Positions 3,997 to 54,402 of a stretch of DNA of 64,000 bases are shown piece by piece. Position numbers and translations under genes: made by a program. Every line of letters begins with the position of its first letter. Positions within the stretch are counted from its first letter, which is position 1. The notes beneath the pieces are model-generated. The model saw nothing but the letters and a program-made list of their open reading frames with translations. It was not told where the DNA came from and did no database searches. Source of the DNA: an uncultured Pseudomonadota bacterium (lineage in GTDB: Bacteria > Pseudomonadota > Alphaproteobacteria > RF32 > CAG-239); assembly GCA_902763155.1 (NCBI GenBank), contig CACWQS010000007.1, positions 3,184 to 67,183 of the forward strand, given 5' to 3'.

Positions 3997-6174
3997 ATGG
4001 CTGAAATTGTCGGTGTTTTGCTACCGCTTCCGTTTGATAAACCGTTTGATTATATAACTGAAACTTCGCTTAAAATCGGGCAGTTGGTGGAAGTCCCGTT
4101 TGGCAAAGAAAAGCAAATCGGTGTGGTCTGGGAAACCAAACAAGATACTGATATTACAGCAGAAAAAATAAAAAAAATCTCAAAAATTTTTGAATTTGAA
4201 CCTCTTAAAGAAAGCCTGTTACAATTTATTAAATGGGTGGCAAATTACAATATGGCGCCGTTAGGAGCGGTGTTTAAAATGGTTATCAGCGTGCGTTCGG
4301 TGTTTGAACCGTCGCCGATGACCGTGCTTTATACCTTGTCGGGCAAAACCTTAGCTGAAGCTAAATTGAAGAATTCCGACGCCCGTTGGCATGTCATGGA
4401 TTTGTTAAAGCATGCGCCTTATACCAGGCCGGAAATTGCTGCCGGAGCAGGTGTAAGTGACAGTGTGATTAAGACACTTATAGATGCCGGTGTATTGGCA
4501 CCGATTTATGTGGAAAATAAGCGCGAATTTTTAGAGCCGGTAGGAGATTTTGCTAAAGTAGAATTGATGCCGGAGCAACAAAATGCCGCAGATGTATTGT
4601 GCCAAAAGGTCGGCAGCGGTTTTTCGGTTACGCTTTTGGATGGTATAACCGGTTCCGGTAAGACTGAAGTTTATTTTGAAGCCGTGGCGAAAACGTTAGA
4701 TGAAGGAAAGCAGGTACTAATTTTGGTGCCGGAAATTTCGCTGACTTCTCAATGGTTGGAGCGCTTTCAAAAGCGGTTTGGCGTGCGTCCGGCAAGTTGG
4801 CATTCCGGTTTGAGCGCCAAAGAACGTACCGATACGTGGAAAGCCGTGATTGAAGGGCGGGTTAAGGTTTTGGTCGGTGCGCGGTCGGCACTGTTCTTGC
4901 CATATACCAATTTGGGGTTGATAGTGATTGATGAGAGTCACGACCATTCGTTCAAGCAAGAGGATGCCGTTAATTATCAAGGGCGCGATATGGCGATAGT
5001 GCGTGCCAATATTGAGCATTTGCCGGTTATTCTTTCAACTGCAACGCCTGATTTGGAAACCATAGTTAACGTAGAAAACGGTAAGTACGACTGCGTAAAA
5101 TTGCAGAGCCGCTATGCCGACGCCGAACTACCGGAAGTTAAAATTGTCGATTTGAAGAAAGACCGGCCGCAAAAAGGCGAGTGGGGTGTTTCGTGGTTGG
5201 CGCCGAGTTTGGTGCAGGCGTTGCAGAAAAATTTAGAGAAGGGGGAACAGTCGGTGCTGTTTCTTAATCGCCGCGGTTATGCACCTCTGCTTATTTGCCG
5301 CGAATGCGGGCATCGGATGCAATGTCCGAGTTGCAGTGCGTGGCTGACAGAACACCGTGCGGCGCAAAAGTTGATGTGCCACCATTGCGGCTATGTTGAT
5401 GAAATCCCGCAAGCATGTCCGCATTGTGGTTCAACCGATGGATTAACGGCTTGCGGTCCCGGGGTGGAGCGCGTGGCAGAGGAGGCGACGCACCGGTTTA
5501 AAAACGCTAAAATTGCTATATTATCGAGTGATAATGCCGGTTCTTTTACTGCCGTTTCCGATATTATCAATAAAATGCAACGCCGCGAGATAGATATTTT
5601 GGTCGGTACGCAGATTATCGCCAAAGGGCACCATTTCCCTGATTTGACATTGGTGGGAATTGTTGATGCTGATTTAGGCTTGATGGGAAGCGATTTAAGA
5701 GCCTCGGAACAAACGTATCAGTTATTGAGCCAAGTAGCGGGACGAGCAGGGCGCGGCGATAAAAAAGGAACGGTAATGGTGCAAACTTTATATCCGGAAA
5801 ACAATGTGTTAAAGGCGCTTCTTAACGGCGATAGAAATACATTTTTAAATTTAGAAAAATCGAGTCGGCAAATGCTGCATTATCCGCCATACGGAAAATT
5901 GGCGGCGATTATCATTTCCGGTGCTAATCAGGTGCAGACGGGGCAGGTGGCGGCGGCTTTCGGTAAAACTGCGCCGCAGACGAATGATATTGAGGTTTTA
6001 GGTCCGGCACCGGCTCCGTTGTTTTTGTTGCGTGACAAATATCGCTATCGTCTGATGCTGAAAACTTCGCGCAATATAAATATTCAGCAAGTGTTGGCTA
6101 AATGGCGGCAAATGGTGCGTGTGCCGTCAACGGTGAAAGTGGAAATTGATATCGATCCGTATTCTTTTATGTAA
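3997..6174 (+). CDS. priA: Primosomal protein N' (replication restart helicase)
   Basis: GITGSGKTEVY, DESH, LNRRGY, four CxxC zinc motifs, VLGPAPAP, DIDPYSFM C-terminus. Confidence 0.97.
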   Translation: MAEIVGVLLPLPFDKPFDYITETSLKIGQLVEVPFGKEKQIGVVWETKQDTDITAEKIKKISKIFEFEPLKESLLQFIKWVANYNMAPLGAVFKMVISVRSVFEPSPMTVLYTLSGKTLAEAKLKNSDARWHVMDLLKHAPYTRPEIAAGAGVSDSVIKTLIDAGVLAPIYVENKREFLEPVGDFAKVELMPEQQNAADVLCQKVGSGFSVTLLDGITGSGKTEVYFEAVAKTLDEGKQVLILVPEISLTSQWLERFQKRFGVRPASWHSGLSAKERTDTWKAVIEGRVKVLVGARSALFLPYTNLGLIVIDESHDHSFKQEDAVNYQGRDMAIVRANIEHLPVILSTATPDLETIVNVENGKYDCVKLQSRYADAELPEVKIVDLKKDRPQKGEWGVSWLAPSLVQALQKNLEKGEQSVLFLNRRGYAPLLICRECGHRMQCPSCSAWLTEHRAAQKLMCHHCGYVDEIPQACPHCGSTDGLTACGPGVERVAEEATHRFKNAKIAILSSDNAGSFTAVSDIINKMQRREIDILVGTQIIAKGHHFPDLTLVGIVDADLGLMGSDLRASEQTYQLLSQVAGRAGRGDKKGTVMVQTLYPENNVLKALLNGDRNTFLNLEKSSRQMLHYPPYGKLAAIIISGANQVQTGQVAAAFGKTAPQTNDIEVLGPAPAPLFLLRDKYRYRLMLKTSRNINIQQVLAKWRQMVRVPSTVKVEIDIDPYSFM

Positions 6175-6193: not shown

Positions 6194-6222
6194 TTGACAA
6201 AATGGGAAATTTTTGCTAATTT
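6194..6222 (+). promoter_or_regulatory. Sigma70-type promoter upstream of leader A
   Basis: TTGACA (6194-6199), 17 nt spacer, then TAATTT preceded by TG. Confidence 0.65.
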
Positions 6223-6230
6223 GGACTTAA

Positions 6231-6476
6231 GCAAGGTGAAAAGACTTGCCCGAGGTGTGGAAACCTCTTTGAGAGCGTCAATGCAAGACGTTAAATTTTG
6301 CAGGCCCGATGGTTATCTTTATGTGATGATCGGTGGGCGGCAAAATAAGCCGTTTTACAAAGACATCATATAAATATTCTAGACAAATATATGGCTGTTT
6401 AGGCCAATATGTCGCACTATTCTCTCAAATAGTTTCCAACCGCCGGTCGCTTTTCATTAAGCGACTAGTTTTTTTT
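6231..6476 (+). ncRNA. c4/CI-like antisense RNA-attenuator leader A
   Basis: GAAAAGA-loop hairpin (6231-6249); b1 hairpin with TGGAAAC (6258-6264) and a1 TTTGAGAG (6268-6275), complementary to a' CTCTCAAA (6422-6429) and b' GTTTCCA (6432-6438); P1 GATCGGTGG/CCGCCGGTC; terminal hairpin plus T8. Confidence 0.75.
6445..6476 (+). terminator. Conditional intrinsic terminator (attenuator) at the end of leader A
   Basis: GGTCGC-TTTTCATTAA-GCGACT followed by AG and T8, immediately upstream of the RBS of the 6502 gene. Confidence 0.7.
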
Positions 6477-6501
6477 GTTTATGGCGAAAAGGAGAACGAC
6501 G

Positions 6502-8196
6502 ATGAGTAGAGAAGAAGATAGAGAAACTTTGGAAAAGTTTTTTAATTGTGTCAGAGAGCAGAATTATCAAGATATTGAAGAAGCATATAAAGCCGTATGC
6601 AAAATGCCGGAATGTTATAGTCCTGATGCTCAATATCACACCTATGGAAAAGCTTACTATATAGATGAAAGAATTTATCCAACCGAAAATAATGTAGATT
6701 TTCATCCGTATATTAAAGGTTATTATGATATGGCAGTTACAGAACAGATGAGTTGGGGAATAGAAGTTTCAAGAGACTTAAAAAGGATAAAAAAGTATAA
6801 TGATTCAGCCGAGTTTGATGGAACTCGTGAATTAGTATTCTTTTTGAATAATTATCGCTATCTTAAAGATACATTAGAAAAACAGGGAAAAGAAATTTTC
6901 AGACCGGATACTTTTGATAAATATCCGTTTTTGGAAGATTATGTTAAAGGAATTTTCCGAGATGATTATGATAGTGTTACGCAAGATGCTGCACAATGCA
7001 AAACAATACCAGAATTAGTTAAAAACAAAGATGCGGTAAATAATTATTGTAATAGAGGTATCTTTGTATATAACCCAACAGAATATTGGGATAATATAGA
7101 AAAAAGGTATGAAGAATGGGGAAAACAAAAATGGCGTGAAATATATACGGAGGCTGAAAATGAAACTTTCAAACAAGGAAATATAGCTACGCTTTCAGAC
7201 GAAGAAAAGAAATTTATATTAGAAAATACCGAAAACGCAGATAGAGCTATTGCAGTTGGCAAAACAGTGAGTAATGAAGTTCTGGATAATTGGGATAATC
7301 CGGTTTTAAAGGCAGAAATTCTTTTTGCAAGAGCGGAAAAACCGGAAAAACTTTCAGATGAAGATAAAGAATTTATATTAAAATGGAGTGAGTCAGATAA
7401 AACCCTTGAGGCTGTTGCTAAGGTGTATGATTTTAAAGCACAATCCGGTGAAAAACTAAAGGTATTACTTCGTTGTGTTGAGCATAAAGAAATTCGTAAA
7501 GATATTGCCAAAGAATATATAGACTCGTGCAAGGGGGATGTTGCTTACAGTTTTCCGATTTCTCGAGTTTTTACCAAAGAAGAATTTGAGCAAGCAGTTG
7601 AAGATTATAAAATCACGCAATATCGTCGTGAAAACGAGAAGTTGAGTGCTGAAAATACGCAATTAAAAGAAGAACATAAAAACGTAGAAAAAGCAAAAAC
7701 AGAACTTGCCGATGAGCAGACGAAATTTCAGCGTTATGTTAATGACAAAAGCGCAGAACTTAAAGCTAAAAGTGAGCAGCTTGGTTTTCAAAAAGATATT
7801 CCGGTTGTTTGTTTAGGCTCGCAAAAAGAGGTTGATTCTTTTGCTCCTGAGCGCAAAAAAGAACTTTTCGCCAAGATGAAAGAGGAAATGTTGAAAAACC
7901 CGAATTTAAGGGAAGGGCATTTGGTCGGAATGTGTAAAATTTATGTTTCCGAAACCAATACACCGGAACAGAAAGCCGAGTATTTTGAAGGTTTGCACGA
8001 AGTTCGTAAATCTGGAACAACTAATGCCGAAAAACGCGAAATGGCGCGCACTTTTGGCCGCGTTTTAGAGCGCAATCAGGAATTAGCCAAAGACGAAGCA
8101 CTAAAAGGTTTGGCTAAGATAGATTACAGCGCCGTTGGATATACACCAACAAAACGCGGCTTTAGTAAAAACAGTAAAAGTGATTTAGAAAAATAA
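6502..8196 (+). CDS. Hypothetical charged/coiled-coil protein, about 564 aa
   Basis: Long ORF; ATG 6502 follows an AAGGAG RBS (the track start 6475 lies inside the terminator); internal repeat; coiled coil near residues 370-430; basic C-terminal tail. Confidence 0.85.
   Translation: MSREEDRETLEKFFNCVREQNYQDIEEAYKAVCKMPECYSPDAQYHTYGKAYYIDERIYPTENNVDFHPYIKGYYDMAVTEQMSWGIEVSRDLKRIKKYNDSAEFDGTRELVFFLNNYRYLKDTLEKQGKEIFRPDTFDKYPFLEDYVKGIFRDDYDSVTQDAAQCKTIPELVKNKDAVNNYCNRGIFVYNPTEYWDNIEKRYEEWGKQKWREIYTEAENETFKQGNIATLSDEEKKFILENTENADRAIAVGKTVSNEVLDNWDNPVLKAEILFARAEKPEKLSDEDKEFILKWSESDKTLEAVAKVYDFKAQSGEKLKVLLRCVEHKEIRKDIAKEYIDSCKGDVAYSFPISRVFTKEEFEQAVEDYKITQYRRENEKLSAENTQLKEEHKNVEKAKTELADEQTKFQRYVNDKSAELKAKSEQLGFQKDIPVVCLGSQKEVDSFAPERKKELFAKMKEEMLKNPNLREGHLVGMCKIYVSETNTPEQKAEYFEGLHEVRKSGTTNAEKREMARTFGRVLERNQELAKDEALKGLAKIDYSAVGYTPTKRGFSKNSKSDLEK
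7192..7383 (+). repeat. Intragenic direct repeat (2 copies)
   Basis: ctttcagacgaagaaaagaaatttatatta (7192) vs ctttcagatgaagataaagaatttatatta (7351); LSDEEKKFIL / LSDEDKEFIL. Confidence 0.75.
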
Positions 8197-49750: not shown

Positions 49751-50176
49751 TTATTTTTGATTATCAATTGGTGTCATATTCATTAGAGCATCGTCTTGTT
49801 CTAAATAATACATATCACCGCTTATCGGGTCAATAATCAGCAAACCGATAAGACCGCCAAAAATAATATTTGCCCAATACCAACCGCTTATATGATAATC
49901 AATACGTGTTTGATAATCTTCATAGCCGTCCTTATGCGCATAAACTGTATAGTATTGAGGGTTAAAGTAACCATCATCAGAAGTTTTTAGGTTAATGGTT
50001 GTCGGAGTCTGTCCTTCAAAAACAGTAAGACCGTTTCTATCTATAATTTTAATATCTACATTAGCAGGACTTGCATTTAGTGTTATCGGCTCCATATTAT
50101 CACGCATAATGGTTGCGCAACCGAAAATCATTGGTAAAATGCCTATAACAGCACATAACATAAATATCTTTTTCAT
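49751..50176 (-). CDS. Lipoprotein with PEGA-like domain and C-terminal hydrophobic hairpin
   Basis: Lipobox IFGC-ATI, GQTPTTINL, KDGYE, WANIIFGGLIGLLIIDPISGDMY. Confidence 0.8.
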   Translation of the reverse strand: MKKIFMLCAVIGILPMIFGCATIMRDNMEPITLNASPANVDIKIIDRNGLTVFEGQTPTTINLKTSDDGYFNPQYYTVYAHKDGYEDYQTRIDYHISGWYWANIIFGGLIGLLIIDPISGDMYYLEQDDALMNMTPIDNQK

Positions 50177-50180
50177 CTTA

Positions 50181-50597
50181 CTAGTCCTTTTGAATAAGTT
50201 TACATTCTTTGATTTCTGATAAAGCGCGACTTTGGTCAGAAACCAACTTAATATTATAACGTCCAGAAATAGCCCCCCAATTTACACCGGAAGAAACATA
50301 ATATTCTTTTCCTGCTTGTGCATCTACAGTAATAGATTCTGTATTTTCTATACTTTCAACAGTGTAAGTATGTTTTCCGGCAGATGTGTGGTGCGGATAA
50401 TAGCCGCCATTATACATTGTAATGATTGTGTTACCATTTTCTTGCACGTCTGGAGACATTCCGCCACCAACATATTTCCACGGGCGGTAAAAATACACGA
50501 TTGCTTCCTCTGAATTTGGTTGTTGCGGAGAGAATTGTTCCCCTAAACTGGCACACGAACAAAGTGCAAATACACATAAAATCAGATATTTTTTCAT
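50181..50597 (-). CDS. DUF2846-like lipoprotein
   Basis: MKKYLILCVFALCSC-AS lipobox; AIVYFYRP, NGGYY...GKHT, AGKEYYV. Confidence 0.8.
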   Translation of the reverse strand: MKKYLILCVFALCSCASLGEQFSPQQPNSEEAIVYFYRPWKYVGGGMSPDVQENGNTIITMYNGGYYPHHTSAGKHTYTVESIENTESITVDAQAGKEYYVSSGVNWGAISGRYNIKLVSDQSRALSEIKECKLIQKD

Positions 50598-50685
50598 CTC
50601 ACTAATCCTTTTTTTTCTTTTCCTTTTTAAAAGGCTCAATAACTTGGTATTGAGCCCCAAGTCAAAAGGAATATCGTTATAAAAA

Positions 50686-51258
50686 TTAGAAATTATAGCG
50701 AACGCCAACTGTTGCTTCGCCAATGTAATCAATATAGTCATTATCTATATGATGATAACGGAACATTCCGCGAATTGACCACTTGTCATTGATGTTATAT
50801 TGTGTGCCTAAACCAGCACGAAAAGCAGTTTTATTAAGAATTTCATGTACTTCCCATTTATCATATTTTCCAGCTTTTATATCAAAGCTATAATGACCTA
50901 CACCGGCAATAGCAAATAAATCGAGTTTTGTATTGAGGGGAATATAACCAACAGCATCAAGACCAACGGAACTATATGACAAATCGCCTATTTTATAACC
51001 ATGTGCTTTTAAATCTACTTCCGAAGATCCTTGTGAAGAAACTTCTAAACCAAAATATTGATTAAATTTTACGCCTAAATTTAAATTGGCAATAAGAAAC
51101 GCTTCTGAATGGCTCTCTCCCAGTAATTTATTTACCTTATTATTATATTCAATTCGTGATGCACCTAAATCCATTCCAATATAAGGTTTAATTCCCTCTG
51201 CATTTGCTTGAGCTGTAAATAAGCAGGCTACACCTGTAAGTAATAGATATTTTTTCAT
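50686..51258 (-). CDS. Outer membrane beta-barrel protein (OmpA-TM/Ail-Lom-like, 8-stranded)
   Basis: Signal peptide ANA-E, PYIGMDLG, GVKFNQYFGLE, GLGTQYNINDKWSIR, C-terminal VGVRYNF. Confidence 0.88.
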   Translation of the reverse strand: MKKYLLLTGVACLFTAQANAEGIKPYIGMDLGASRIEYNNKVNKLLGESHSEAFLIANLNLGVKFNQYFGLEVSSQGSSEVDLKAHGYKIGDLSYSSVGLDAVGYIPLNTKLDLFAIAGVGHYSFDIKAGKYDKWEVHEILNKTAFRAGLGTQYNINDKWSIRGMFRYHHIDNDYIDYIGEATVGVRYNF

Positions 51259-51283
51259 TTGTTTTCCATCCTTTTAAAAGTTC

Positions 51284-51311
51284 AAAAAAATACCCGCTTT
51301 TCTTTAGCGGG
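51284..51311 (-). terminator. Conditional intrinsic terminator (attenuator) at the end of leader B
   Basis: CCCGCT-AAAGAAA-AGCGGG-TATTTTTTT, ending 25 nt upstream of the OMP start codon. Confidence 0.7.
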
Positions 51312-51500
51312 CGGATGTTCGAAAACCGTCAATGATCAAGTAAAAACCGGCTCGGCTTATTTGGCCGGATAGCCTTATTCAGCCGACATCCGTCCAAAAA
51401 GAACAGAAGTCGGCATATATATTTAAGTCGCATATGCACACACGACTACTTGATTATTAGTAGGGTTTTCGACGCCCTAAGTATGTCTTTTCCATACCTA
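51284..51500 (-). ncRNA. c4/CI-like antisense RNA-attenuator leader B
   Basis: Minus strand: GTATG-GAAAAGA-CATAC hairpin; b1 TCGAAAACC (51464-51472) and a1 AATAATCAAGTA (51447-51458), complementary to b' GGTTTTCGA (51319-51327) and a' TACTTGATCATT (51331-51342); P1 GGACGGATGT/ACATCCGCCC; terminator CCCGCT/AGCGGG plus TATTTTTTT. Confidence 0.78.
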
Positions 51501-51545
51501 CTAGCTAGGTTATATGAAATTGAAACAAAAGTAAAGAACTATTTT

Positions 51546-51576
51546 AAAAACGCCTCACTTTTTATGTAAGGCGTTT
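51546..51576 (-). terminator. gyrA terminator
   Basis: aaacgcct/aggcgttt stem with a T-tract on the minus strand. Confidence 0.7.
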
Positions 51577-51600
51577 AAATTTTGTTGATTTCGAAATAAC

Positions 51601-54402
51601 TTAAGCATCAACTTCGTCTGTTTTCGGCTCGGCAATCACTTCATCTGCCATTATTTCGGCTGCCTCAATCTCGGTATCGGTTTCCTCATCTATTTCCTCA
51701 TCAGTGCCTTCATCAGCATCGAGTTTGGTTACCGAAACCACTTTCTCATCATCGGCGGTGCGGAACAAAATCACGCCTTGCGTCTTGCGTCCGGCAATAC
51801 GAATGTCATCTACCGGCATTCTGATTAACTTACCGCCGTCGGTTACCATCATGATTTCCTTATCTTCTTCTATCGGGAATGAACTGACAACTTCCTTATT
51901 ACGCGGCGACATTTCCATATTGGCAATACCTTGACCGCCACGACCGGTTACACGATATTCATACGACGACGAACGTTTACCATAGCCGGTTACCGTTACG
52001 GTGAGCAAAAATTCCTCCAACTCTTGCATTTGGGTAAATTTTTCCGGCGTTAATAAGTTCAACAAGCCGGTCTGATCAGCCGTCATGCAACTGATTTCGC
52101 CGGTTTCGGCATCAACCTTCTTCATGGCGCTTGAAATGCGGAGATACTCATCACGCTCATCGGCATTAGCGCTAATATGCTTTAAGATAGACATGGAAAT
52201 TACTTCATCTCCCTTGGCGAGTTTAATGCCGCGCACGCCGGTTGAATTACGTCCGACAAACACACGCAAATCGGCCACTGGGAAGCGAATACACTTACCC
52301 AAGCGCGTTGCCAACATAATATCGTTATTATTATCGCACAGTGCCACATTGACCAGTTTGTCGCCATCATCAAGCTTCATGGCTATTTTACCGTTAGCTT
52401 GAACGCGAACAAAATCCATCAAGCTGTTGCGGCGGATATTTCCGGTTGCCGTGGCAAAAGCAATCGACAACCCTTTGCACTCCTCTTCATTTTCCGGCAA
52501 CTTCATAATTGCAGTAATGTTTTCGCCGTTTTCCAGAGGAAGCAGGTTAATAAACGGCTTACCCTTAGAGGTCGGTGAACCGAGCGGCAACTTATAAACC
52601 TTCATCTTATAAACAATACCGCGGCTCGAGAAGAACAACACCGGTGTATGTGTGCTTGCCACAAACAGACGGGTAACAAAATCTTCTTCCTTCGTAGTCA
52701 TGCCCGATTTACCCTTACCGCCACGTTTTTGTGCCTTATAAGCATTAAGCGGTACACGTTTGATATAACCTTCTTCGGTAACCGTAACCACCATTTCTTC
52801 ACGCTGAATCAGCGATTCAATATCTTGGTTAAACTCGATATCTTCAATTTGGGTTAAACGCGGAGTAGCATATTCATCTTTAACAGCAACCAATTCATCA
52901 CGCATAATACCATAAAGTTTCTCACGGCTGGATAAAATCGAAAGATATTCTTTAATATCATCACCTAAAGCCACCAATTCATCGTGAATTTTATCACGTT
53001 CCAAACCGGTCAAGCGTTGCAATTTCAAATCCAATATCGCTTTGGCTTGGTCTTCGGAAAGTTGATACATACCGTTTTCAACCTTATGATCCGGTTCATC
53101 AATCAAATCTACCCATGAAGCAATACTACCGGCCGGCCACGGATTAGCTGTCAGGCGATCACGTGCATCTTGCGGTGTAGGAGCGGTTTTAATCAACTCA
53201 ATTACCGGATCCAGATTTTCTACCGCTATTGCCAAACCAACCAATACATGCGCTCTGTCACGTGCTTTATTTAAGCGATATACCGTGCGACGACGGATAA
53301 CTTCTTCACGAAATTCGATAAAGGTCGAAATAATGTCGCGCAAATTCATCATCATCGGGCGCCCGCCGTTAATGGCGAGCATATTCATCCCAAAACTGGT
53401 TTGCAGCTCGGTGTATTTGTAAAGCTGGTTCAAAATTACTTCGGCTTGGAAGTCGCGCTTAATTTCGATGACGATACGCACACCTTGACGATCCGACTCA
53501 TCACGGATATCGGAAATACCTTCAATGCGTTTATCTTTGACCAATTCAGCAATATGCGCCACCAAATTGGCTTTATTAACCTGATAAGGCACTTCATGAA
53601 CAATAATGGCTTCTTTATCCTTACGAATTTCTTCAATAGAGCATTTTGAGCGCATCATTACCGAACCGCGACCGGTTAAATATGCCTGACGCGCCCCGCC
53701 GTAACCTAAAATCAGTCCGCCGGTCGGAAAATCCGGTCCCGGAACAATTTTAATTAAATCTTCAATAGAAATTTCCGGATTATCAATATAGGCACAGCAG
53801 GCATCAATTACCTCGCCTAAATTGTGTGGCGGAATATTGGTCGCCATACCAACGGCAATACCGTTACCGCCATTAACCAATAAATTCGGAAAACGTGCCG
53901 GTAAAACGGTAGGCTCTTGTAATGATTCATCATAGTTCGGCATAAAGTCAACGGTATCTTCGTCCAAGTTATCGGTCAAGCAGGTGGCAACCTTAGCTAA
54001 TCTTGCCTCTGTATAACGCATAGCAGCGGCACCGTCACCATCCATCGAACCGAAGTTACCCTGCCCGTCAACCAAAGTTAAGCGCATTGAAAACGGTTGC
54101 GCCATACGCACCATAGCTTCATAAATTGAGCTGTCGCCGTGCGGGTGATATTTACCCATAACATCACCGACAATACGTGCCGATTTACGGTAAGGCTTGG
54201 TGTTATCATAGCCATTCTCAAACATTCCGTAAATAATGCGTCGATGCACAGGTTTCATACCATCTCTGGCATCAGGTAATGCACGCGAAACAATCACGCT
54301 CATGGCATAATCCAAATAGCTGCGGCGCATTTCTTCAGAAATCATGGTCGGGGCAATATTATCGGTTTTAACAACTTCGGTTGTTGCAATTTCTTCAGTC
54401 AC
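51601..54402 (-). CDS. gyrA: DNA gyrase subunit A
   Basis: [33 protein letters not shown], GyrA-box QKRGGKG, acidic tail. Confidence 0.98.

Follow-up and report, generated by a model that had tools for sequence, protein, structure and literature searches.

This study was concerned with a stretch of DNA of 64,000 nucleotides (nt) from an uncultured alphaproteobacterium (GenBank assembly GCA_902763155.1, contig CACWQS010000007.1, positions 3,184 to 67,183 of the forward strand), referred to here as the window, and with a structured element on its minus strand between gyrA and an operon for an outer-membrane protein (OMP) and lipoproteins. We consider it reasonably probable that 51284-51535 (minus strand) is a self-contained unit for a cis-acting leader of about 215 nt that gates read-through into this operon. 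The leader probably also controls access to the ribosome-binding site (RBS) of the operon. It is from the anatomy of the leader that we infer this control. Our best reading of its sequence is that the leader was built from parts of a phage c4-type antisense module, rewired onto its own terminator. Judged by sequence and predicted structure, it belongs to a large, undescribed leader family of uncultured gut Alphaproteobacteria, placed before up to dozens of surface-protein genes per genome.

The leader is strongly structured. The 221 nt at 51280-51500 fold at -82.3 kcal/mol, compared with -51.3 +/- 4.2 kcal/mol in 200 shuffles (z -7.41; no shuffle was equal). The element stands behind the gyrA terminator with a promoter-like site, as an earlier reading of the window (the sequence-only reading) had proposed: TTTACT at 51535-51530, a 15-nt spacer and TATAAC at 51514-51509 are directly readable on the minus strand, as a motif only. 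A simple promoter scan listed 51570-51541, and the TTTACT/TATAAC site (51535-51509) was not in that list. The best -10-like hexamer begins 32-35 nt before a conserved AGGGCG in 47 of 96 family members and 36 nt before it in the window.

All copies share the same order of elements: promoter-like site, H0, Pa, var a, P3, an A/U-rich linker and P4, followed by AAUAAGGC...AAUAAGCCGAGCCG, then var a', then ACGGUUUUCGAACAUCCGCCCGC continuing into the terminator. In the window, on the minus strand, H0 (51478-51500) is a 5'-terminal hairpin; its sequence varies among copies and the hairpin is always kept, with a family mean self-fold of -7.1 kcal/mol vs -2.0 kcal/mol for shuffles and with compensated differences between near-identical paralogs. 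Pa (51462-51478) reads AGGG-CGTCGAAAA-CCCT, family-wide AGGG-CGUCGAAAA-CCCU, and is either a local hairpin with an 'a1-like' loop segment or the 5' strand of helix P1. The segment var a (51447-51461), recognized by cognate duplex energies, is the 'b1-like' address and the 5' strand of helix P2. The P3 hairpin AGTCGT...GCGACT (51426-51447) has a conserved GCAT-containing loop and is 96.1% paired in the family, with 6 of 6 pairs changed on both sides. The decoy strand GCCGACTTCTGTTC (51401-51414) is the 5' arm of hairpin P4 (51382-51414; 93.1% paired across the family alignment); its complement GGACGGATGTCGGC (51382-51395) holds the 5' strand of the c4-like closing stem, which is sequestered in P4. 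The three-way junction resembling c4 and the small RNA (sRNA) sRNA-Xcc1 spans 51309-51395 and comprises the closing stem GGACGGATG/CATCCGCCC, hairpin 1 (CGGCT...AGCCG), hairpin 2 (GCCG...CGGT) and a junction strand. The 'b'-like' address var a' (51330-51342) forms the hairpin-2 loop when the RNA is in the c4-like fold and supplies the 3' strand of P2 when the RNA is closed, and the 'a'-like' junction strand ACGGTTTTCGAAC (51317-51329) pairs with CGAAAACC of Pa in the closed fold. The closing stem 3' strand AACATCCGCCC (51309-51319) has GCCC in common with the terminator arm and contains AACATCC, the complement of RBSs of the GGATGTT type; in the same region, AACATCCGCCCGC lies at 51307-51319, ACATCCGCCC at 51309-51318 and CCCGCT at 51306-51311. 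The intrinsic terminator (51284-51312) is canonical, GCCCGCT-loop-AGCGGGT followed by A and T7, and is 94.5% paired in the family with 3 covarying pairs. Scored as a terminator-like site at 51312-51292, it has 7 pairs (5 G-C), a 7-nt loop and the tail ATTTTTTTGA. The hairpin 51382-51414, the alternative pairing, the terminator arm and the RBS strings quoted by the sequence-only reading are all in place on the minus strand. A leader peptide (ATG CCG ACT TCT GTT) at the decoy strand was considered and rejected from alignments of the copies: several copies have ATA, GTG, TTG or no start in place of the ATG, the reading frame is not maintained and no Shine-Dalgarno sequence lies in front. The string CGACTTAAA has a likeness to boxA, by eye only.

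These elements can be arranged in two folds. Pair counts were made on a MAFFT alignment of 106 distinct family members, whose sequences are related and non-independent. The conservation of structure that the sequence-only reading depended on was found in this alignment, with pairings above chance level (86-94% paired) and compensatory changes. Fold A consists of CGAAAACC of Pa with GGUUUUCG (helix P1), var a with var a' (helix P2), P3, P4 and the terminator. P1 and P2 together form a long-range helix of 51447-51478 with 51317-51342, the strongest element of the region. Fold A is 86.3% paired in the 106 sequences, with changes on both sides in 27 of 50 pairs, and none of 500 shuffles scored as high. 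P1 is 95.9% paired and has 5 covarying pairs, three of them strong (C-G 68/A-U 23/G-C 13; G-C 54/A-U 50; A-U 42/G-C 41/C-G 10/U-A 8). Fold B consists of the closing stem GGRCGGAUG/CAUCCGCCC, hairpin 1 (CGGCU/AGCCG with inner GGC/GCC), hairpin 2 (GCCGU/ACGGU with var a' in its loop), the junction UUUCGAA and, 5'-terminally, the local Pa hairpin. It is 93.9% paired in the 106 sequences, and covariation is limited but present. For example, the CGGCT/AGCCG pairing that had been proposed as a helix of the junction (hairpin 1) is a real one, with U-A 48, G-C 19 and U-G 15. The top pair of the closing stem has G-C 97/A-U 3/G-U 2, the Pa closing pair has A-U 86, G-C 3, U-A 2 and G-U 2, and in copy L031 the CCG/CGG of hairpin 2 is replaced by CUG/CAG.

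The two folds exclude each other for two reasons. First, the nucleotides of the P4 3' strand also serve as the 5' side of both the closing stem and hairpin 1. Secondly, the GG of ACGG is used in both P1 and hairpin 2. The exclusion between the hairpin 51382-51414 and the GGACGGATG/CATCCGCCC pairing, and the overlap of the latter with the terminator 5' arm, were correctly recognized by the sequence-only reading; closing stem and arm have GCCC in common. That reading overlooked the long-range helix 51447-51478/51317-51342, which favours the terminator-permissive fold by about 20 kcal/mol, and as a whole its interpretation is partly supported. The predicted energies are -82.3 kcal/mol for fold A with the terminator vs -62.3 kcal/mol with the closing stem forced. 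When transcripts are cut before the 3' arm of the terminator, GGGCG is paired with CGCCC in the fold of lowest energy.

The anatomy is consistent with an attenuator that is off by default. The leader has a promoter (by motif), a structured 5' region, an intrinsic terminator directly before the open reading frame (ORF) and a structure competing with the terminator. Fold A would be the closed, predicted ground state, in which Pa and var a pair over about 22-27 base pairs with the downstream loop and junction strand, the decoy binds the closing stem 5' strand (P4), the terminator hairpin forms and transcription would stop at the T run. Fold B would be the open state, in which the c4/sRNA-Xcc1-like junction forms and the closing stem takes up the terminator GCCC and the anti-RBS AACATCC. 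This would weaken the base of the terminator, let the polymerase read through and leave the RBS free. We infer that termination is suppressed in fold B, with fold A as the default state, and that some input moves the RNA from A to B. Among 22 listed sequencing runs, none recorded as RNA contained the locus.

The family was defined by comparison across genomes. BLAST identified two further copies in the 1.47-Mb genome that contains the window (G000), before a family-2 glycosyltransferase and before a lipoprotein. Within the genus it had matches in 22 of 24 genomes, whereas 16 genomes of other families had none. When one genome of each species was scanned with a sequence pattern, at least 120 stretches were obtained, and the records behind nearly all of those listed bore the titles uncultured gut Alphaproteobacteria, 'Azospirillum sp.' or 'Acetobacter sp. 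CAG:977'. Among the 120 listed stretches, seven did not belong to the family and were rich in G+C; six of these were removed on their G+C content, and L136 was recognized by its record title only. In total, 137 distinct copies were extracted and 106 were aligned, and a covariance model, R1, was built from the alignment. BLAST alone had undercounted the family (3 copies in G000, none outside the genus), which R1 corrected. R1 gave 13 matches in G000 at E<=1e-3, divergent subtypes included. It matched 49 of 50 genomes of the genus, with 1 to at least 49 matches each, and 140 of 151 genomes of the order, in which all 20 sampled genera were positive. In other families of the class, 9 of 149 genomes had matches, all of them small. 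This tally, and that of canonical sRNA-Xcc1 given below, takes in one unpublished genome (G217), without which the R1 count is 8 of 148. Of the 137 copies, 133 are followed by a co-oriented ORF, whose median distance from the T run is 25 nt (range 0-62). An earlier description of the family was not found in literature searches, which did not cover supplementary files (Additional file 1 of PMC2864571; the Brt sequences of PMC5387305).

A second, divergent family member lies in the window at 6195-6480 (plus strand) and is probably the 'Leader A' of the sequence-only reading; R1 scored 33.2 bits at 6229-6474 (E 1.5e-7, filters off). It is located between a 725-amino-acid (aa) ORF (3997-6174) and a 573-aa ORF (6475-8196) and has TTGACA/TAATTT, a 5' hairpin, GAGG-TGTGGAAA-CCTC and a terminator at about 6443-6477; its hairpin 1 is longer. 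The copy at G000:C12:54816-55020 is similar to it, and the downstream proteins of the two look alike at the N-terminus. Several assemblies rich in leader copies (L034, L037, L049, L139 and others) carry titles such as 'Eubacteriales', 'Bacteroidaceae', 'Lachnospiraceae' and '[Ruminococcus] gnavus' that look mislabelled.

The relation to known RNAs was judged by model scores and by layout. No Rfam family reached its gathering score anywhere within the window. C4 (RF01695, threshold 45 bits) had no match at E<=10 on window 50900-51900 and none at E<=1 on 18 related loci or on 3 divergent copies of the same genome; the c4 of phage P1 itself scored 68.8 bits with the same tool. Likewise, c4-a1b1 (RF03163, threshold 46.7 bits) had no match on the window, the 18 related loci or the 3 own-genome copies, and phage P1 scored 51.0 bits. 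The best-scoring known family was sRNA-Xcc1 (RF02221), with 24.4 bits at 51301-51395, 28.1-38.3 bits in 11 of the 18 related loci and 37.9 bits in a divergent copy on G000:C4, all below its gathering score of 53 bits. Every listed sRNA-Xcc1 match spans model positions 1-87 of 87. The sequence-only reading had called the junction a canonical c4 junction; its topology is indeed that of the Rfam C4 and sRNA-Xcc1 consensus, but membership in C4 is not supported by model score.

The shared C4 topology is a closing stem around two adjacent hairpins with a 3' junction strand, in which the hairpin-2 loop and the junction strand are the antisense sites. The upstream a1/b1 copies complementary to these sites are present in the leader as the helices P1 and P2. 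The c4-a1b1 layout (a 7-bp hairpin, then a 4-bp GGG/CCC hairpin with the target in an 8-9-nt loop) is matched by H0 and Pa, by eye. In the annotated record of phage P1, the order is promoter, a1, b1, c4, a2, b2 and icd. By this annotation and the C4 consensus, hairpin 2 is GCCGG/CCGGU, its loop is b' and the following junction strand is a'; the annotated a1 site lies within the loop of the c4-a1b1 GGG/CCC hairpin. C4 RNAs are processed at the 5' end by RNase P and have an ACC(A)-like 3' tail, and c4 acts through translational repression of icd, Rho-dependent polarity and RNase P processing. The leader thus resembles the immI region of phages P1 and P7 (C4 RF01695, c4-a1b1 RF03163, clan CL00128) in its promoter, hairpin, GGG/CCC hairpin with a target copy, second copy and three-way junction, and in the complementarity of the hairpin-2 loop and following junction strand to the two upstream copies. 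In both systems the complementary pairs differ between copies, so that specificity results. However, the leader differs from immI in several ways. First, it has no ACC tail, its closing stem being followed by GCT..., and an intrinsic terminator overlaps the closing stem 3' strand. Secondly, an extra P3 hairpin and the P4 decoy strand lie between the a1b1 part and the junction. Third, no downstream copy of the variable target is detectable. Lastly, the context is not that of phage immunity: the genes downstream are chromosomal surface-protein genes (in the window for OMP and lipoproteins) instead of an antirepressor, with none of icd/ant type, and there are up to at least 49 copies per genome.

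The likeness to sRNA-Xcc1 comprises the closing stem, a nested hairpin 1 with AAUA-rich internal loops, hairpin 2 (GCCGU/ACGGU) and the junction UUUCGAA. Canonical sRNA-Xcc1 is also multi-copy in some Alphaproteobacteria and located upstream of genes; at 53 bits or more it was found in 5 of 151 genomes of the class. It differs from the leader family in having its terminator between a1b1 and the RNA and clear a2/b2 sites at the RBS of the next gene, whereas in the leader family the junction comes before the terminator and no clear b2 site is seen. sRNA-Xcc1 was reportedly described originally, by Chen et al. in 2011, as an integron-borne trans-acting sRNA. At one locus (L190, G039:C1:749239-752323), canonical sRNA-Xcc1 occurs three times in tandem, at a spacing of about 994 nt. 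These copies have the full layout of a1b1, terminator, RNA, a2b2 and gene, and a1/a'/a2 and b1/b'/b2 change together between the copies. By this layout and three-way covariation, sRNA-Xcc1 is therefore itself a c4-type system, which suggests that RF02221 belongs in the C4 clan CL00128. Another c4-like RNA (L157, G000:C2:185362-185558, plus strand) has an upstream copy TTGACAG, the same letters as the annotated a1 of phage P1, with a matching junction and a 10-nt loop/upstream complement; the C4 model had no match to it at E<=1. It lies between an ORF that looks by eye like a UmuC-type polymerase and a 150-aa ORF.

The helix P2 could not be aligned by column, so duplex energies were scored instead. 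Cognate var a/var a' duplexes had a mean of -9.96 kcal/mol vs -2.41 kcal/mol for non-cognate ones, and the cognate partner was the best of 124 in 94 cases. The 1.5-Mb genome G012 provides an example within a single genome: all 34 parsed addresses are distinct, the cognate mean is -20.9 kcal/mol vs -9.7 kcal/mol off the diagonal, and the cognate partner was best in 27 of 34 and 31 of 34. Paralogs of the same assembly with cores 94-100% identical have a var a/var a' identity of 0.45-0.82, and they differ in H0 too, in all cases with compensation. For example, L115 and L140 are identical in Pa, P3, core, hairpin 1 and junction and differ in H0, P2, the P4 tip and the terminator loop. H0 had no cognate pairing preference for the downstream region, the terminator, var a/a' or P4. 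These differences reflect either diversifying selection on H0 and P2 or a homogenisation of the remainder by gene conversion. An address helix that differs between otherwise identical paralogs suggests a gene-by-gene choice at the RNA level.

The RBS is tied to the leader through two subtypes. Type I, that of the window, has AACAUCC in the closing stem 3' strand, and type II has AACUUCC, with other letters in the decoy, closing stem and terminator and the same pairing scheme. In G012 there were 36 R1 matches, all of which were retrieved (L196-L231), with 17 of type I and 18 of type II. The genes behind the 35 typed copies are all of prepilin type (N-terminal GRSMIEMLGVLAII-like), and each leader has a different address. 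Among 17 parsed type II copies, the exact 7-nt closing-stem complement was found in 15 and a fully pairing decoy in 14. The RBS GGAAGUU follows 16 of 18 type II leaders, a count inflated by paralogy, and GGAUGUU none of the 18. Type I leaders of the wider set have GGAAGUU in 1 of 137 cases and GGAUGUU in 39 of 137, and other ORF starts at the same loci have them in 8 and 6 of 874, respectively. The preferred RBS 7-mer is the exact complement of the AAC(A/U)UCC of its own type. On these correspondences, we read the closing stem 3' strand as a putative anti-RBS that would be masked in fold B. In the window, the RBS region GGATGGAAAACAAATG (51256-51271, minus strand) ends in the start codon, and its GGAUG and GAAAAC (51261-51266) are able to pair with CAUCC and GUUUUC of the leader. 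GAAAAC had been taken for a partial b2-like site. This proved to be a minority feature: a cognate junction-site 6-mer was found downstream of 12 of 101 copies vs 4.9 expected, which none of 5000 label permutations reached, orthologous copies being non-independent, and the variable loop is without a cognate target near the RBS.

Several observations weigh against a cis-acting leader that switches between these folds. First, fold B is about 20 kcal/mol less stable than fold A, so a strong input would be needed. Secondly, the majority of fold-B pairs carry no information because they do not vary (in the closing stem, 6 of 9 pairs are always the same), and 53 of 106 copies have an A.C mismatch in the closing stem. 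Third, the pair counts come from MAFFT alignments of related, non-independent sequences. In addition, the closing stem and terminator stem of type II overlap by only 2-3 nt. Lastly, one copy (L156, G000:C4:16258-16445, minus strand) is without a co-oriented downstream gene, which fits a stand-alone sRNA. This copy may be a stand-alone sRNA or a relic. It scored 61 bits with R1 and 37.9 bits with sRNA-Xcc1, and its terminator faces the 3' end of a convergent 356-aa ORF, which by eye is like a peptide-chain release factor.

L156 also bears on the first alternative, in which the element is the gene of a c4-type antisense sRNA acting in trans or in cis. The terminated RNA of about 215 nt, or a processed core of it, would repress the RBS region as c4 does at icd, the terminator would merely end the sRNA, and the downstream genes would be expressed from constitutive leakage. 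We regard this as rather unlikely. It is favoured by the complementarity of the RBS to the leader 3' strand and by the excess of cognate a2-like 6-mers, and canonical sRNA-Xcc1 loci have exactly such a layout. Brt1 of Bartonella is also reported to act in trans, in the available part of its description (PMC5387305). However, neither the variable loop nor var a had a cognate preference for the 70 nt after the T run (-5.60 vs -5.21 kcal/mol), the pairing strands of the terminated RNA would be buried in fold A, and the decoy hairpin and the terminator overlap would have no role, yet they are kept in two subtypes.

For a cis-acting attenuator, the locus-specific address points to an RNA input. We consider the most likely input to be a factor acting on the a1b1:a'b' address, for example an RNA with a cognate sequence or a chaperone such as Hfq, which is encoded in the genome; a small-molecule ligand seems less likely. 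A further step can be imagined, which we consider unlikely: a locus-addressed, self-reinforcing switch. Here a transcript in the c4-like fold would pair in trans with a1b1 of nascent transcripts from the same locus. Its exposed loop and junction would block the closed fold and so cause further read-through, and the effect would be confined to the same locus because every locus in the genome carries a different address. If this were true, the ON state would be heritable without a DNA change, as an RNA-based phase variation, and a cell would express one or few of its many pilin, adhesin and glycosyltransferase genes. Two described systems lend plausibility to such a switch. IsrK of Salmonella Gifsy-1 (isrK, RF01394) is an a1b1-type RNA with a terminator, and the isrK model overlaps the a1b1 region of phage P1. 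In the available part of its description, the terminator gives short and read-through isoforms, and the long isoform is refolded by the short one acting in trans (PMC4825925). IsrK differs in being a single prophage locus and in controlling the translation of orf45/anrP, not its own terminator; the isrK model had no match in the window or in 18 related loci. The Brt1-9 RNAs of Bartonella are, in the portion of PMC5387305 that was available, alphaproteobacterial, lineage-restricted, multi-copy, highly structured and highly transcribed RNAs of 194-203 nt, each directly upstream of a poorly transcribed gene. There the authors suggest that the Brt RNAs act both as a terminator/riboswitch and in trans, and that they are connected with an adhesin. 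The likeness to Brt is drawn from this description and not from sequence, and Brt differs in having genes for helix-turn-helix regulators downstream, not surface proteins.

A protein-dependent antitermination leader was also considered, in which Hfq or another factor would bind P3 or the A-rich loops and shift all copies together, as one surface-gene regulon. P3 and the AATAAGG/AATAAGCC internal loops are conserved in sequence across copies without an evident alternative partner, Hfq is encoded, and up to at least 49 copies per genome have a common core. We nevertheless find this reading quite unlikely, as a global factor leaves the address differences between otherwise identical paralogs unexplained, and several candidate factors were not found in the genome, which is 98.45% complete. 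CsrA was rejected: GGATGT in the leader and RBSs, which we take to be CsrA-site-like, resembles its site, but no CsrA was found in G000. RfaH-like control through GGCGGATG, presumably an ops-like element, was also rejected, as only one NusG-family gene and no specialised NusG paralog was found. ProQ was likewise not found.

A metabolite or second-messenger riboswitch with the three-way junction as its aptamer appears very improbable. Such a reading would account for the conserved junction and internal-loop nucleotides, for a terminator as expression platform and for the many copies before surface genes. On the other hand, the two subtypes differ in the sequences closing the junction and keep the pairing logic, and the most variable element is a base-pairing address, not a pocket. 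In addition, C4 and sRNA-Xcc1 are antisense RNAs and are listed neither as cis-regulatory nor as riboswitches in the available part of PMC2864571. A repeated DNA element without RNA function, of the miniature inverted-repeat transposable element or repetitive extragenic palindromic kind, would fit the multiple copies and non-syntenic insertion places but is hardly credible given that compensatory changes maintain at least five helices, that orientation and distance to the next ORF are fixed, and that a promoter-like site and terminator lie in the transcribed sense.

On the preferred reading, that of a terminator switch acting in cis, c4-type modules, known as immunity devices of phages and islands, have apparently been rebuilt into a regulatory leader present in dozens of copies. 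With 36 matches in a 1.5-Mb genome and at least 49 elsewhere, it would to our knowledge be among the most abundant regulatory RNAs per genome. It spans a whole order of uncultured gut Alphaproteobacteria, for which there is no genetics. Other host-associated bacteria use DNA-based phase variation to vary genes of the classes that lie behind it: pilins, opacity-type OMPs, autotransporters, leucine-rich repeat (LRR) proteins, glycosyl- and sialyltransferases and a DNA methylase. Among 129 downstream proteins, Pfam identified BspA-type LRR (14), Glycosyltransferase family 2 (10), OMP_b-brl (6), PEGA (6), Autotransporter (5), Opacity (4), GT92 (3), Bundlin (2), PilS (2), Chlamydia PMP (2), EcoRI methylase (2), GT29 (1), Stealth (1) and GT8 (1). 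The N-termini of 133 downstream proteins were prepilin-like in 14 cases, lipobox-like in 32 and signal-peptide-like in 39.

In the window, gyrA occupies 51601-54402 on the minus strand, and 342 nt separate its end from the ATG at 51258. A terminator-like inverted repeat with a T run, read from the sequence, follows gyrA at about 51546-51574 (minus), just upstream of the promoter-like site of the leader. The surface-protein operon that had been proposed downstream is present: the genes at 49751-51258 (minus) directly follow the leader, and encode a 190-aa OMP_b-brl protein (50686-51258; ATG at 51258-51256, in which AAGGATGGAAAACAAATG ends), a DUF2846 lipoprotein (about 50181-50600) and a 141-aa lipoprotein-like protein (49751-50176), before endonuclease I (endA). 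A comparison of the gyrA-endA interval, which had been put forward as a check, was made in 27 relatives having the gyrA 3' end. No leader in the same orientation lies within the 1.5 kb that follow gyrA in any of them, and at least 6 of the 27 (L240, L242, L244, L249, L252, L255) have endA directly after gyrA, without the leader and the OMP and lipoprotein genes. By this comparison, the cassette 49751-51540 (leader and three genes) is an accessory insertion between gyrA and endA. In another species, an OMP-like gene with a related N-terminus is also preceded by a leader but lies downstream of fmt. The closest foreign relative of the window leader is L005 (G024:C41), with 89% identity and the same var a'. 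Behind L005 lies a gene for a family-2 glycosyltransferase, and the product of the gene that follows a different G000 leader (L002) has an almost identical N-terminus. Given these combinations of genes and leaders, the two therefore seem to have been reshuffled between species.

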